Assembly (NCBI GenBank): GCA_963727625.1
Contig: CAVSHR010000005.1
Coordinates: 32,001 to 96,000 of the forward strand
Length of the DNA: 64,000 nt
From: an uncultured delta proteobacterium
Lineage (GTDB): Bacteria > Desulfobacterota > Binatia > UBA9968
Direction: 5' to 3'
The position numbers were made by a program, and so were the translations under genes. Under the pieces are notes generated by a model that saw nothing but the letters and a program-made list of their open reading frames with translations, did no database searches and was not told where the DNA came from. Of this stretch, positions 56,660-63,973 are shown piece after piece. Position 1 is the first letter of the stretch; every line of letters begins with the position of its first letter.

Positions 56660-56830
56660 CGAGACAGCAAAAGAACAATTTTGTTCGGGCAAGATTTGCT
56701 AAAAATTTTGTACATCGTTTGTTCGCCCGCTGCGTCTAACTCTCCAGAAAGGACGGTTCCTCGCCGCTGATTCCACAGCGACGAAAAGCTGCGTTGACCG
56801 TGCCCGCAACGAAGAAGAAAGAGCAAAAGC

Positions 56831-57043
56831 ATGAAAAAACCGGAATCTGAAAAGATTGAGACCACCCTGGGAGAGCTCGTCGCCGCCGCCAGCGAAGTCG
56901 CCTTCGAGTACTCCAATAACGACATCGAAGCGTACAAGCTGGCTCGCCTGGCACTCATCGAAATTCTTAGAAAAACCTCGCATCCTCTCGACTTAGATCG
57001 AGAATTTGAAAGTCTGGGTATGTCATCTAAGCTCGTTCATTAA
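56831..57043 (+). CDS. Small hypothetical protein (TTLxEL motif)
   Basis: Purine-rich RBS, 70-aa helical ORF, degenerate ECF-like promoter upstream. Confidence 0.65.
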   Translation: MKKPESEKIETTLGELVAAASEVAFEYSNNDIEAYKLARLALIEILRKTSHPLDLDREFESLGMSSKLVH

Positions 57044-57101
57044 GTCTTCGAAGGCCAGCGAGCGGCACCCTCCCTGGGCCGTGCAAATCCGCAATTTTTG
57101 G

Positions 57102-57127
57102 GGAACTTTTGCCCACGTCGCTACGTT
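57102..57127 (+). promoter_or_regulatory. Candidate ECF promoter, GGAAC-N17-CGTT type
   Basis: GGAAC TTTTGCCCACGTCGCTA CGTT, ~110 nt upstream of the redoxin ATG. Confidence 0.45.
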
Positions 57128-57153
57128 TTGATTGACATAGATCTCGAGGCAAA

Positions 57154-57181
57154 CAACCAAAACACTGTGGCGCTCATCTAA
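57154..57181 (+). promoter_or_regulatory. Candidate ECF promoter AACC-N16-CRTCTAA, copy 1
   Basis: CAACC AAAACACTGTGGCGCT CATCTAA upstream of redoxin-msrPQ. Confidence 0.65.
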
Positions 57182-57235
57182 TAGCGGCGCGACCATGCGC
57201 CGCAAATTGGCTGCAGCGGAGGAAAACCGAGAAAA

Positions 57236-57763
57236 ATGTTTCGATCCCTCACCTTGTGGCTGCTGATCGGGCTGGGTGCAGCGGCTTGGCTGGCCTGGCC
57301 AAAGTTTGGTGCGGCAATTACTTCGGGACAAAAGGCTCCGGAGTTCACCGGCGAAAATTGGCTAAATAGCAAACCTCTGACCATCGCGGGGCTGAAGGGC
57401 CGAGTCGTACTGGTCGAGTTCTGGACCTACGGCTGAATCAACTGCCGAAACATCATCCCGCAGTTGCGGGCGTGGCATGATAAGTACGAGGGCTCGGGCC
57501 TGACCATCGTCGGTGTCCACACCCCGGAGTTTTTCTGGGAAAAGGCGCTCGACAAGGTAAGAAAAGCAACCACAAGATTGGGCATCAAGTTTCCGGTCGT
57601 GCAAGACAATGATTTTGACAATTGGAAGCGCTACGGCGTCTGGGCTTGGCCGACGGTTATCTTGATCGACAAGCAAGGCGTGATCCGCTACAGCCACATC
57701 GGGGAAGGTGGCTACCAGAAAACCGAATCAATCATCCGCCAACTGCTCGACAGTCCAAGTTGA
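57236..57763 (+). CDS. Exported thioredoxin-like redoxin (DipZ/TlpA-like) with in-frame TGA: putative selenoprotein (UxxC)
   Basis: ORFs 57236-57436 and 57464-57763 are in one frame: APEF...WLNS.PLT...[29 protein letters not shown]...LID..G.IRY.H.GEG. Confidence 0.85.
57452..57481 (+). promoter_or_regulatory. SECIS-like hairpin
   Basis: ATCAT-CCCGC-AGTT-GCGGG-(CGTGGC)-ATGAT starting 16 nt after the TGA, with a G in the apical loop. Confidence 0.55.
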
Positions 57764-57816
57764 CAGTCGCTCTTTTCTCGGCAAACATAGACACAGGAGT
57801 CCGGAGGAACGAAGCC

Positions 57817-58791
57817 ATGCTGATCAAAAAACCCGCGGATTTAAAATCATCCGACATCACGCCCAAAGATCTTTACATGAACCGGCGTGAGTTTATCGCA
57901 TCCGCATCGACCCTGGCAGCATCCGCCGCGGCGGCTCTCGCCGGCTTGGGCGCCTTCGCCATGCCGGAAAAGGCGCAAGCCGGGCAAAAGCTCGCGAACC
58001 TAAAAAAAAGCTTTTACAGCACCGCTGAAAAGCAAAACTCTTTTAAAGACATCACTTCCTACAATAATTTTTACGAGCTCGGCGTCGACAAAAGCGACCC
58101 GGCGCAAAACGCCAAGTATCTGACTACCCGGCCATGGAGCGTCACTGTCGAAGGTGAAGTAAAAAAGCCCAAGACCTTCGACATCGAAACGATCATGAAA
58201 ATGAGCCCGCTCGAAGAGCGGGTTTATCGCATGCGCTGCGTCGAAGCCTGGTCCATGGTCGTCCCCTGGATCGGCTTCCCACTCAGCGCGCTGATCAAAC
58301 AGGTGGAACCGACCAACAACGCCAAATTCATTCAGTTCGTCACGTTGCTCGACCCAAAGCGTCTACCGGGGCAGAAGCCGGGGATTTTCGGCAGCGTGCT
58401 CGATTGGCCCTATGTCGAAGGGCTGCGCATGGACGAAGCGATGCACCCCCTGGCGATTCTCTCGGTGGGTCTCTACGGCGAAGTGTTGCCGGGGCAAAAC
58501 GGCGCGCCACTGCGCATGGTGGTCCCTTGGAAGTACGGCTTCAAGAGCATCAAGTCGATCGTCAAAATCCGCTTCGTCGAGACCCAGCCGCCGACCTCGT
58601 GGAATAAAATGCAGCCGCGGGAGTACGGCTTCTATTCCAACGTCAATCCGGAAGTCGATCATCCGCGCTGGAGCCAAGCCACCGAGCGGCGCATCGGCGA
58701 GTTTCTGCGTCGCAAGACTCTTATGTTCAACGGCTACGGCGAGCAGGTGGCAAGCTTGTATAAGGGAATGGACCTGAAGAAAAACTACTGA
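57817..58791 (+). CDS. msrP: Periplasmic protein-methionine-sulfoxide reductase, catalytic subunit
   Basis: Tat signal [62 protein letters not shown]. Confidence 0.96.
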
Positions 58792-58891
58792 AGCAATTAA
58801 GAATTGAAAATGGAAAATTAAGATACGCCCCACGACTCCGTAAACCGCTTCTTTCTCCCGTTTTCAATTTACCATTTTACATTGTCCATTT

Positions 58892-62038: not shown

Positions 62039-62791
62039 ATGGAGACCAAAAAACCAAAATCTCTAGTCCTGCAAATGAAGAAGACGACTATGTCACTCCC
62101 ACAGACAGCGTTGGCTGTTGCGCAAACGTCAACCTACGAGGCCCGCAATGTCGGCCCGAGGGCGAATGCGGCGAGACCCGCGGCACGGCGAAAAAAATCT
62201 ATTGGCGACGATCGCCAACTCATCGAAAGGCTCCAAGCGGGCGACCATCAAGCGCTGGAAGAGATTTTCAATCTATACTCAGGAAAGCTCTATAACGTGG
62301 CGCAGCGCATCCTCGGCGAGAATGCCGACACCGAAGAAATCATCCAGGATGTTTTCTGGACGGTTTACCGCAAAGCCAAGACCTTCAAAGGCGACTCGCA
62401 ATTTTCGACTTGGCTATACCGCCTGACGGTAAACGCCGCGCTGGGTCGCATCCGGCGCAGCAAGAAGAACAAGGAAGTCGAGTACGACGAGTTTTTGCCG
62501 AAGTTTCAATCGGACGGACACCATCTCGTGCGTCCGGTGGTCGACTGGTCGGACACCCTCGACGAGAAATACGCCCAACGCGAGATCCATGCCCTGCTCG
62601 GCAAAGCCTTGAATGAATTGAAGCCGCTGGATAAAAGCGTGATCGTGCTCAGCGATCTCGAAGGACTTTCCGACAGGGAAATCGCCGATACACTTCAATT
62701 GACTGTTTCCGCGGTGAAAACCAGACTGCATCGGGCGCGCCTGTTCTTGCGCGGCAAATTGGCGGTACAACTAGGACACTCGGCAGCGTAA
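62039..62791 (+). CDS. ECF RNA polymerase sigma factor
   Basis: D..LI..L..GD..A, EE..QDVF, F.G.S.FSTWLYR..VN, EGLS..EIA..L......VKTRLHRAR; exact start uncertain. Confidence 0.93.
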   Translation: METKKPKSLVLQMKKTTMSLPQTALAVAQTSTYEARNVGPRANAARPAARRKKSIGDDRQLIERLQAGDHQALEEIFNLYSGKLYNVAQRILGENADTEEIIQDVFWTVYRKAKTFKGDSQFSTWLYRLTVNAALGRIRRSKKNKEVEYDEFLPKFQSDGHHLVRPVVDWSDTLDEKYAQREIHALLGKALNELKPLDKSVIVLSDLEGLSDREIADTLQLTVSAVKTRLHRARLFLRGKLAVQLGHSAA

Positions 62792-62812
62792 TCCGAAGAA
62801 GGATACATCAAT

Positions 62813-63124
62813 ATGGCGAAACTCAAGGTGGCCGAGAAATCGCGTCTCAATGACTCTTGCAAAAATATGACGGATTTGATCTTGGATTATCTAACCGATC
62901 GACTGAGTCCGTGCCTGAAAGACGATTTCGAGCGCCATTTAAAAATGTGCCCGGATTGCGTGAATTTTTTAAAAACCTATCGCAAGACGATATCTCAGAC
63001 AGGATCGCTGAGTTCCGTGACCATTCCGGCGAAAGTGCGCAAAAACGTGCTCGCGTTCTTGCGCCGAAAAACCCATCGGATTGTCGTCCTTTTCTTTTAT
63101 TTAATCGCTCAAGTGACTGGATGA
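62813..63124 (+). CDS. Zinc-binding anti-sigma factor (zf-HC2/ZAS)
   Basis: C..M...I.DYL...L......FERHLKMCPDC (Hx3Cx2C), directly downstream of the ECF sigma. Confidence 0.85.
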   Translation: MAKLKVAEKSRLNDSCKNMTDLILDYLTDRLSPCLKDDFERHLKMCPDCVNFLKTYRKTISQTGSLSSVTIPAKVRKNVLAFLRRKTHRIVVLFFYLIAQVTG

Positions 63125-63155
63125 GTTGGCTTCCGGCTATAACCGGTTGGCTGCG

Positions 63156-63183
63156 TAACCTATGCTTACCGTCCCACGTCTAA
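63156..63183 (+). promoter_or_regulatory. Candidate ECF promoter AACC-N16-CRTCTAA, copy 2
   Basis: TAACC TATGCTTACCGTCCCA CGTCTAA upstream of ORF 63253. Confidence 0.65.
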
Positions 63184-63252
63184 GTGAAGTCGCTTGAGAC
63201 ATCCGTTTACGAGAAACTGGCGTAAAGTGGAAAAAAGGAAGGGAGCAGAAAC

Positions 63253-63456
63253 ATGAATACTTGGGAAGCAGTTTTTAGCCAAAGCCCGGCCAATGACGGT
63301 TACTACAACGGCGAAAAATTACCACAGGCCCATTGGGAATGGCCAAAGAGCACCTGGTTTCAGGCCCGCCTGGACCAGATTCGGGAAAACGAGCGGCCAT
63401 GGAACCCTCGAGCCGGCTTGAGACCACGAAATGCCGCTGCGTTGCGCACCATGTAG
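63253..63456 (+). CDS. Small hypothetical protein
   Basis: AAGGAAGGGAG RBS and upstream promoter motif; 67 aa, Trp-rich. Confidence 0.5.
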   Translation: MNTWEAVFSQSPANDGYYNGEKLPQAHWEWPKSTWFQARLDQIRENERPWNPRAGLRPRNAAALRTM

Positions 63457-63653
63457 TTGAGTCCGCAGTGGTTTTTGAATAGCTCGGACTTGCTCGCCGT
63501 ATATTCGCGACCTTCCTCGAGCGCTCAATGGAAAAAGCGCCGCGGGTATCTTTGCGCCCAGTCCCGAAAAAGTTTGGCGTCGCATCCTTGACACTGCTCC
63601 CAATCACCGCACGCGCACGCAGGGGATCATCCAGTCCGCTCGTAAATTTCTTG

Positions 63654-63681
63654 CAACCTAACGGCGGCGACGTACATCTAA
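63654..63681 (+). promoter_or_regulatory. Candidate ECF promoter AACC-N16-CRTCTAA, copy 3
   Basis: CAACC TAACGGCGGCGACGTA CATCTAA upstream of ORF 63716. Confidence 0.65.
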
Positions 63682-63715
63682 TCAACACGAACAGCCAAAA
63701 TTCGGGAGGCAGATC

Positions 63716-63973
63716 ATGAGAGCTAAAACAAACGGTGCAGCCGCAGCGCCAAAGTCAAAGACCCTTCGCTTCAAAACAACGCTTTTCGATCTTTTCGCCG
63801 GGCTGATCGATGGTCAAATCAACGACGCCGCCGCGGTCGCCAGCGTCCGGCAAATCTTCGCCCACTGCGACGTGCGCCTGGCTCGAACCTTGACGCCATT
63901 AAGATTGGCGGCTTCACCCGAATCTCCGCGAATAACCCGCAACCTCTCTAAAAACGGCTTGCGGTTGGCGTGA
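63716..63973 (+). CDS. Small hypothetical protein (TTLxDL motif)
   Basis: GGGAGG RBS and upstream promoter motif; KTTLFDL..D..AVA.V. Confidence 0.6.
   Translation: MRAKTNGAAAAPKSKTLRFKTTLFDLFAGLIDGQINDAAAVASVRQIFAHCDVRLARTLTPLRLAASPESPRITRNLSKNGLRLA

Follow-up and report, generated by a model that had tools for sequence, protein, structure and literature searches.

The DNA analysed here is a stretch of 64,000 nucleotides from an uncultured delta proteobacterium (Desulfobacterota; Binatia; UBA9968; assembly GCA_963727625.1, contig CAVSHR010000005.1, positions 32,001 to 96,000, forward strand). The whole stretch is called the window; coordinates without a prefix refer to it, and those elsewhere in the genome are given as contig and position (C5:96344). 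From 56,713 to its right end, the window carries genes for a selenocysteine (Sec) redoxin and for MsrP and MsrQ, a divergent gene for a sigma54 activator, and an operon encoding a STAS protein, an extracytoplasmic function (ECF) sigma factor and a zinc-type anti-sigma factor (ZAS1). These genes are proposed to form a two-tier cascade, in which sigma54 would govern the synthesis of the ECF sigma factor and this factor would govern repair genes and small proteins (sp70, sp67 and sp85) through a repeated promoter motif. The full cascade is given a probability of about 0.6, because the motif persists in genomes without the ECF gene and paralogous ECF genes have similar sites.

In the first tier, a ligand-responsive GAF-GAF enhancer-binding protein would bind three GCGAAATATCGC-like sites and, from there, turn on the sigma54 promoter of the STAS-ECF-ZAS1 operon. 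In the second tier, the RpoE/SigW-like ECF sigma factor would be held by the zinc/thiol anti-sigma factor ZAS1 until thiol oxidation or another cue frees it for transcription from tGyAAC(c)-N16/17-CRTCTAA promoters. Its targets within the island would be sp67, sp85 with a second anti-sigma gene (ZAS2), a glucose-dehydrogenase-like gene and perhaps a MIP channel gene. Beside the island, it would reach two core targets, sp70 and the Sec-redoxin-msrPQ operon, the latter repairing oxidised periplasmic methionine. The best site of the genome belongs to the operon of ZAS2, and induction of this anti-sigma factor would feed back negatively with a delay. As an AND gate, the circuit would require synthesis of the sigma factor and then its release.

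The repeated motif as an ECF-type promoter

The pattern AACC-N16-CRTCTAA has three matches within 6.5 kb, all on the plus strand: AACC-N16-CATCTAA at 57155-57181, before the Sec-redoxin-msrPQ operon; AACC-N16-CGTCTAA at 63157-63183, before sp67; and AACC-N16-CATCTAA at 63655-63681, before sp85-ZAS2. All three were also recognised in relatives (the second in part of them); the third has the top score of the genome, 27.4, with the position weight matrix (PWM) described below. All three copies are intergenic and in sense orientation, 54 nt (Sec-redoxin, 57236), 69 nt (63253) and 34 nt (63716) from the ATG. An initial annotation of the window had reported three copies with identical spacing, intergenic, in sense and 35-70 nt before open reading frames (ORFs). 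The pattern search agrees, the start coordinates of that annotation being 1 nt low.

The number of matches expected in the window by chance is 0.01, and three or more were obtained in 0 of 100 shuffles. The exact pattern occurs five times on both strands of the whole 6.62-Mb genome, three of them at this locus; with spacers of N12, N14, N15, N17, N18 and N20, the half-sites give 3, 0, 4, 4, 1 and 2 matches, versus 5 at N16. The PWM was built only from 25 sites of relatives, none being taken from the genome of the window. Its consensus is tGyAACcTt-N14-CATCTAA; beyond the positions forced by the search pattern, the 25 sites carry information in a G two bases 5' of AAC and in the final A. At a threshold of 16, the genome has 27 matches at the canonical spacing, whereas 14 other spacings give 3-13 each. 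Downstream of 14 of the 27, at 15-150 nt, lie a ribosome-binding site (RBS) and a start codon that opens an ORF of 60 aa or more, versus 11 of 86 matches whose spacing is shifted by at least 2 (Fisher p = 7e-5). Four of the eight best-scoring genome matches at the canonical spacing flank the island ECF gene. The PWM scan that the initial annotation had suggested thus reveals enrichment both at the right spacing and upstream of genes.

Conservation was examined in 12 syntenic loci from members of the genus and in 80 loci from metagenome contigs (72 distinct STAS DNA sequences). Of the sequencing runs listed for the region, two were of soil DNA, with small shares, and none was of RNA. Across loci, the promoter has the form tGyAAC(c)-N16/17-CRTCTAA. 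The -35 and -10 blocks are kept at orthologous intergenic positions, and the spacers of 16-17 nt between them are unrelated in sequence. The motif precedes the Sec-redoxin gene in all 8 genome loci that hold the region, and sp85 in 8/9 genome and 25/25 metagenome loci. Before the dehydrogenase gene, it scores at least 13 in 12/12 and at least 19 in 9/12 genome loci, and at least 14 in 21/28 metagenome loci. Before sp67, it is present in 6/12 genome loci (regular expression) and 20/33 metagenome loci (PWM at least 14). The motif consists of two blocks without palindromic symmetry, whose spacing is constant within 1 nt; it always reads in the sense direction, with a start codon 20-115 nt downstream.

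On this comparison, there is little doubt that the repeated motif is an ECF-type promoter. The promoter architecture proposed by the initial annotation is borne out by the two blocks footprinted in orthologous regions with diverged spacers, and the gene neighbourhood, whose conservation it wished to see examined, is shared among relatives together with the motif. Because the motif is enriched and conserved, two of the objections which that annotation had raised against itself, chance frequency and lack of conservation, fall away.

One more site, TGTAACC-N17-CGTCTAA, lies far from the island at 3441-3468 on the minus strand (C5:35468). It scores 22.3 with a spacer of the canonical length +1 nt; no convincing ORF was found downstream of it.

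The probable sigma54 tier

The activator gene (59541-61556, minus strand) is divergent from the sigma operon and encodes a GAF-GAF-AAA+-HTH enhancer-binding protein (PF00158, 244 bits; GAF in two stretches; HTH_8) whose translation contains GAFTGA. Its start is probably the ATG at 61556, where the alignment of relatives begins. Three GCGAAATATCGC-like sites at 61608-61651 (no strand assigned) are a candidate upstream activating sequence. Next comes a sigma54 promoter, TGGCAC-N5-CTGCT (GG-N10-GC; 61705-61720, plus strand), with its -12 GC 38 nt upstream of the STAS start codon; the GCGAAATATCGC-like repeats are 55-100 nt further upstream.

This promoter is seen in 11/11 genome loci holding the region (9 by regular expression, 2 by eye), and a GG-N10-GC promoter is present in 76/78 evaluable metagenome loci (50 distinct sequences), versus 0/75 control windows. 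Repeats related to GCGAAATATCGC are visible in 11/11 genome loci, and at least two strict half-sites in 40/67 evaluable metagenome loci; the exact 12-mer, in either orientation, occurs at 7 further places in the genome beyond this locus. The genome has rpoN. A GG-N10-GC element, an activator with PF00158 and GAFTGA, and rpoN are the parts expected of a sigma54 promoter with its enhancer-binding protein, and sigma54 very likely drives the sigma operon. The initial annotation had placed the ECF and anti-sigma genes behind a sigma54 promoter and a divergent GAF-GAF activator, an arrangement now found conserved in 11/11 genome and 76/78 metagenome loci. Sequence and comparison show which parts exist, that they are conserved, that both motifs resemble promoters and that Sec is decoded (see below); that the activator responds to a ligand is a presumption.

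The first gene of the operon encodes a single-domain STAS protein of 91 aa with the SpoIIAA/RsbV fold (61758-62033, plus strand; Pfam STAS 25.0 bits, cut-off 22.6). Its structure model has a pLDDT of 86.4, and the best neighbours in the PDB are SpoIIAA and RsbV (TM 0.76). TIGR00377 gives 18.9 bits, under its cut-off of 53.45. In 10 sequences, F-M is followed by H, S, N or K, so that no conserved phosphorylatable Ser was found; ORFs and a Pfam scan revealed no GHKL/HATPase-type kinase gene in the locus. Assignment to the partner-switching STAS antagonists was rejected on these two grounds. Any role of the protein in the cascade is conjectural.

The ECF gene directly follows the STAS gene in 55/55 metagenome loci, and the STAS-ECF order is kept in 11/11 genome loci. 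A STAS profile search of 300 other genomes of the phylum gave one match, in G078, from another Binatia family. The G078 locus has a sigma54-like promoter, a STAS gene and an ECF gene 36% identical to that of the island, with no adjacent ZAS gene; no motif site with a PWM score of at least 11 was found in the 17 kb examined.

The ECF sigma factor and its anti-sigma factors

The ECF sigma factor (62039-62791, plus strand) has Sigma70_r2 (PF04542) and r4_2 (PF08281) domains and matches TIGR02937 (100.9 bits, cut-off 42.9). With sigma2 and sigma4 as its only domains and the superfamily model matched, it belongs to the group-4 sigma70 factors. No equivalog model reaches its cut-off, the best being PRK11922 (153.1 bits, cut-off 204); among solved structures, the closest are SigW, AlgU and RpoE. 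The N-terminal ~58 aa are variable. An insert in the sigma2-sigma4 linker, FLPKF..GHH..RPV.DW, is invariant in 10 orthologues (residues ~148-172; 62480-62560). Such invariance is unusual, the region between sigma2 and sigma4 being variable as a rule.

ZAS1 (62813-63124, plus strand; zf-HC2) has 103 aa, the motif C16-x25-H42-x3-C46-x2-C49 and a hydrophobic C-terminal tail. The motif is present in 14/14 rows and the tail in 11/14; the tail suggests a membrane anchor. Among solved structures, RsiW is the closest (E 0.033). The second zf-HC2 anti-sigma factor, ZAS2, begins at 63970, overlapping the sp85 stop codon, and continues on the plus strand past 64000, the end of the window, to C5:96344. 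It has C-x25-H-x3-C-x2-C in 11/11 full rows, lacks the hydrophobic tail and is predicted to be soluble. By their motif, the zf-HC2 match and the proximity of an ECF gene, both proteins belong to the ZAS family; they would bind the sigma factor and sense oxidants. No ECF motif was found before STAS or ZAS1 (best PWM scores 2.3 and -0.4), so the motif does not mediate autoregulation of the sigma operon.

The Sec-redoxin-msrPQ operon and sp70

The redoxin (57236-57763, plus strand) is an exported TlpA/ResA-like protein with the active site G-U-I-N-C, U being encoded by an in-frame TGA at 57434-57436. Pfam AhpC-TSA and Redoxin match once this TGA is read as U. In 21 rows of the genus, the codon is TGA in 16 and TGC (Cys) in 2; in the other 3, an alignment offset prevents the call. 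A SECIS (selenocysteine insertion sequence)-like hairpin, CCCGCAGUUGCGGG, starts 21 nt after the UGA (57457-57470, plus strand), and a CCCGCAGUUGCGGG hairpin follows the UGA in 9/9 loci folded. The genome has selA, selB and tRNA-Sec. A UGA at a position where homologues have Cys, a hairpin after it and the decoding genes are the marks of a bacterial selenoprotein; by these marks, the Sec decoding of this TGA is real. The selenocysteine redoxin named in the initial annotation is upheld by the conserved TGA, the hairpin and selA/selB/tRNA-Sec.

MsrP (57817-58791, plus strand) is the molybdopterin periplasmic methionine-sulfoxide reductase and has a twin-arginine leader (NF003767, 493.7 bits, cut-off 207). 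MsrQ (58892-59557, plus strand) is its haem-binding membrane partner (NF003831, 195.8 bits, cut-off 130). The two genes are adjacent and both equivalog models exceed their cut-offs, which identifies an MsrPQ pair. The gene content listed by the initial annotation (redoxin, MsrPQ, activator, sigma54 site, STAS, ECF, anti-sigma) agrees with the domain scans.

Upstream of the operon, the motif copy at 57155-57181 (promoter P2) is accompanied by a second ECF-type promoter, P1, GGAACTT-N15-CGTT (57102-57127, plus strand), ~50 nt 5' of P2. The GGAACTT and GTTT columns are invariant in 12 aligned loci. Genome-wide, GGAACTT-Nn-CGTT has 6 matches at N15 and 5 at N16 versus 0-5 at other spacings, a weak enrichment. 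Because P1 is conserved upstream of P2, the Sec-redoxin-msrPQ operon probably takes two sigma inputs.

The gene before the operon, sp70 (56831-57043, plus strand), encodes 70 aa without a signal peptide; it has no match in Pfam and NCBIfam scans, and no function is assigned by family models. It is syntenic in relatives, with 40-79% identity. Its Atlas features lead to clusters of 70-aa hypothetical proteins in Binatota, which is only a lead. A variant promoter, CATC-N16-CGTCTAA, lies at 56713-56739 (plus strand), 91 nt before the ORF. It is best read as ACATC-N16-CGTCTAA, with A(T)C as -35 and a spacer of the canonical length -1 nt. CGTCTAA is kept in 7/7 loci holding the region, where relatives show ACAAC or GCAAC in the same register. 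The degenerate fourth copy that the initial annotation had placed before this ORF is thus confirmed.

Proposed targets within the island

The ORF sp67 (63253-63456, plus strand) encodes a Trp-rich protein of 67 aa with no match in Pfam or NCBIfam; the Atlas look-up returned nothing usable. It belongs to a small Trp-rich paralogous family, four other copies of which (C5:418346, C12:343530, C7:6373, C4:1601843) lack the motif. In its 5' leader (63190-63250), a conserved stretch GACATCCGTTTACGAGAAAC...AACGTA is present in several relatives. An Rfam scan of 56000-64000 gave nothing at E <=1. The next ORF, sp85 (63716-63973, plus strand), encodes 85 aa and has no Pfam or NCBIfam match either.

Two further genes lie past the end of the window. 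A glucose-dehydrogenase-like Zn-ADH gene (C5:96461-97570) follows ZAS2 and has a motif at C5:96357. It is followed by a MIP channel gene (C5:97959-98801), before which several loci show a weak CATCCAAT motif-like site (C5:97927) ending 5-6 nt before the ATG. Because it ends so close, the MIP transcript would be leaderless if the site is functional.

Distribution of the island

The gene order shared among relatives is MutY, MtgA, sp70, Sec-redoxin, MsrP, MsrQ, activator (opposite strand), STAS, ECF, ZAS1, sp67, sp85, ZAS2, dehydrogenase, MIP. An ECF orthologue (at least 74% identity) is present in 16 of the 31 genomes of the genus. In G019, ECF and activator persist only as frameshifted pieces (L054, G019:C46). 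No orthologue was found in the other 14 of the 31, where the best paralogues are at most 39% identical; four of these genomes are at least 96% complete. The dehydrogenase orthologue is found in 14 of the 31 genomes, all of them with the ECF gene (decayed in G019), and in 0 of the 14 without it.

On a tree of MsrP, the ECF-less genomes lie scattered: the starred branches require 4 changes or more, and the parsimony count is 6. G018 (L051, G018:C9) has a deletion scar that fuses the C-terminus of the activator to the C-terminal part of ZAS1. By this comparison, the regulator block is an accessory island of one Candidatus Binatia genus that has been lost repeatedly.

Readers of the motif

Several findings weigh against a cascade in which the island sigma factor alone serves these promoters. 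G018 has lost the regulators and keeps motif sites. The motif before Sec-redoxin/MsrP (PWM at least 18) is present in 6 of the 8 evaluable ECF-less rows versus 12 of the 15 ECF-bearing ones. G007, a genome 98% complete in which the best match to the ECF is 36% identical and no orthologue was found, keeps perfect sites before the Sec-redoxin gene, the orthologue of a GMC-oxidoreductase gene and a rhodanese-like gene. The motif is missing before sp67 in 6/12 genome and 13/33 metagenome loci. Before a second Sec-redoxin gene (see below), it occurs 21-24 nt from the ATG in 7-8 of 20 loci, unrelated to the presence of the ECF. Finally, the genome of the window encodes five paralogous ECF factors, 27-37% identical to that of the island, and several of them have AAC(C)-N15/16-CGTCTAA near or upstream. 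Because these paralogues use similar promoters, cross-recognition or another reader is likely.

Either another sigma factor shares the promoters, or the losses are recent and have left orphan promoters; both may hold. Since the motif persists without the ECF and paralogous ECF factors use similar promoters, the island sigma factor is probably not the sole reader. The link from the ECF to Sec-redoxin and msrPQ, as drawn by the initial annotation, therefore does not stand as an exclusive one, given the motif kept in 6/8 ECF-less rows and the paralogues with AAC-N15/16-CGTCTAA.

An alternative follows directly. The motif would be a genuine ECF promoter, read mainly by an RpoE-like ECF paralogue that is core and found throughout the genus (candidate, the C4:622056 type). 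The island ECF would share its specificity or read other sites, and Sec-redoxin and msrPQ would belong to the core regulon and not to a sigma54-gated cascade. This is regarded as a possible but somewhat unlikely state of affairs. It agrees with the retention of the motif in the 6 of 8 ECF-less rows and with the similar motifs of paralogous ECF genes. The C4:622056-type orthologue in G018 itself sits behind GGGAAC-N17-CGTCTAA, and G007 retains at least three such promoters without the ECF. On the MsrP tree, the early-branching G344, G023 and G007 are without the island, and a redox cluster at C5:142-156 kb has three motif matches and no sigma gene. Against it, sp85-ZAS2 and the dehydrogenase gene carry the best and most conserved motif copies and exist only together with the island ECF; the ECF-less genomes are scattered on the tree, with at least 4 forced changes; and in 2 of the 8 ECF-less rows the -35 block or the entire site is gone. 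Several losses are recent, as seen from the scar in G018 and the decay in G019, and orphan promoters are therefore to be expected.

That the motif serves as a site bound by a conventional transcription factor, or by the enhancer-binding protein, instead of as a promoter is very improbable, given its bipartite, non-palindromic and always sense-oriented form at near-constant spacing and 20-115 nt from start codons. In addition, its two halves fit consensus classes of ECF promoters, AAC and CGTC/TCTAA (PMC2893595, PMC8315932), and the repeats of the activator itself differ from it in sequence. Chance similarity or a dispersed repeat is refuted by the shuffles (0/100 with 3 matches), the enrichment at one spacing, the test on downstream genes and the conservation of the two blocks only, with different spacers and flanks, and has a negligible probability.

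The two-tier cascade remains the preferred reading. In a more elaborate form of it, the island would generate pulses under AND-gate control and link selenoprotein redoxins with MsrPQ repair; sigma54 and GAF sensing alone would control sigma synthesis, a kinase-free, non-phosphorylatable STAS protein would act directly on the sigma factor or a ZAS protein, and ECF-induced ZAS2 would close a delayed negative loop. The conjunction of all these steps is doubtful.

Relation to known systems

The initial annotation did not recognise a described system here; partial analogues exist, namely Neisseria sigmaE/MseR, ECF16 and HrpRS/HrpL. In Neisseria, sigmaE (NMB2144) and the ZAS anti-sigma factor MseR (NMB2145) control MsrA/MsrB; the promoter has a -10 CGTCTAAH, a -35 GTMAGBWTT and a spacer of 12-13 nt, the operon is autoregulated, and transcription of gonococcal msrAB starts 6 nt downstream of the -10 (PMC2893595). 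Both systems have an ECF factor, a small anti-sigma factor with a Cys plus H-x3-C-x2-C and envelope methionine-sulfoxide repair as target, and the -10 CGTCTAAH matches the CGTCTAA found here (PMC2893595). In the NCBIfam model for MsrA/MsrB fusions, the thioredoxin-like N-terminal part is matched by the Sec-redoxin (E 7.7e-9). Unlike Neisseria, the island has GyAAC as -35, a sigma operon behind a sigma54 promoter without ECF motif, a STAS gene besides two ZAS paralogues, and MsrPQ and a selenoprotein as targets.

In ECF16 (SigF/NrsF; BcrS/AbcS), the sigma factor drives an msrPQ-type operon, for example bcrXQP, coding for a peptide rich in methionine and for MsrQP (PMC8315932, PMC10151825); the promoter consensus is (T/C)GTAAC-N17-CGAA (PMC8315932). 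Common to both are an ECF factor acting on an msrPQ-type operon and small proteins in an oxidant response, and an agreement in -35 and spacing. ECF16 differs by a six-transmembrane DUF1109/NrsF anti-sigma factor, which contrasts with the 103-aa zf-HC2 protein of the island, by a -10 CGAA in place of CRTCTAA and by the lack of a sigma54 tier; the small proteins of the island are not methionine-rich. Membership in ECF16 was rejected because neither the anti-sigma factor nor the -10 corresponds.

In Pseudomonas syringae, HrpR/HrpS and sigma54 activate the ECF gene hrpL, an order of enhancer-binding proteins, sigma54, ECF gene and regulon like the one proposed here (PMC5263251). Its output is type III secretion, and hrpL has no adjacent ZAS or STAS gene. 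The HrpR and HrpS activators are not known to have GAF-GAF sensor modules.

SigR-RsrA and SigW-RsiW share the ZAS motif, including the extra Cys 25 residues upstream. SigR and SigW autoregulate; in the island, unlike in these pairs, a second, ECF-induced ZAS paralogue would give feedback. The modelled STAS protein has the same fold as SpoIIAA and RsbV (TM 0.76). It differs from them in the Ser position (H/N/S/K), in the lack of a GHKL kinase in the locus and in the co-transcription of its gene with an ECF gene.

In the partial texts retrieved on ECF factors with STAS and sigma54, and on ECF factors with MsrP and an anti-sigma factor, no description of the present arrangement was found; the words STAS, sigma54 and enhancer are absent from the main text of the ECF reclassification paper PMC7826278. 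The island appears to be a new combination of known regulatory parts and not a new kind of system: it would join ideas of the known analogues, and what it adds are a STAS gene, a pair of ZAS paralogues and targets that are selenoproteins. If the cascade is true, no ECF/ZAS module gated by sigma54 would have been known before apart from HrpL-type systems; for Binatia, an uncultured phylum of soil, it would also provide the first regulatory logic of oxidative-damage repair. The island ties a periplasmic selenocysteine redoxin to MsrPQ, and its sigma factor, two anti-sigma factors and about six promoters are a compact, probably orthogonal set of parts for synthetic biology. Its presence and absence within one genus are a natural experiment on promoters after the loss of a sigma factor. 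The chief interest lies in the sigma54-STAS-ECF-dual-ZAS wiring and in this series across the genus.

Candidates for a wider regulon and further selenoproteins

The initial annotation described a compact local cascade. This is too narrow, as candidates are found past the end of the window and elsewhere in the genome. The regulon would also include ZAS2 behind sp85, the glucose-dehydrogenase-like gene and perhaps the MIP channel gene; the second Sec-redoxin gene is a candidate. This second selenoprotein (C4:691856-692347; L078:357-849) is AhpC/TSA-like with W-U-P-Y-C, and its in-frame TGA is present in 30/30 matches of the genus.

A membrane protein of 91 aa at C2:599976, near a paralogous ECF gene, is another candidate for the wider regulon. 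The redox cluster (C5:142000-156100) encodes, on one strand, DM13, NDH-2-like, GMC oxidoreductase, MOSC, and cytochrome b561-like plus YedY-like molybdoenzyme proteins; its three motif matches have GCATCC or GCAAC as -35. In G007, the rhodanese-like gene (L138, G007:C4, minus strand) has an in-frame TGA after ...HCAGPT and is preceded by GCAAC-N17-CATCTAA; by its sequence, it may encode a further selenoprotein.

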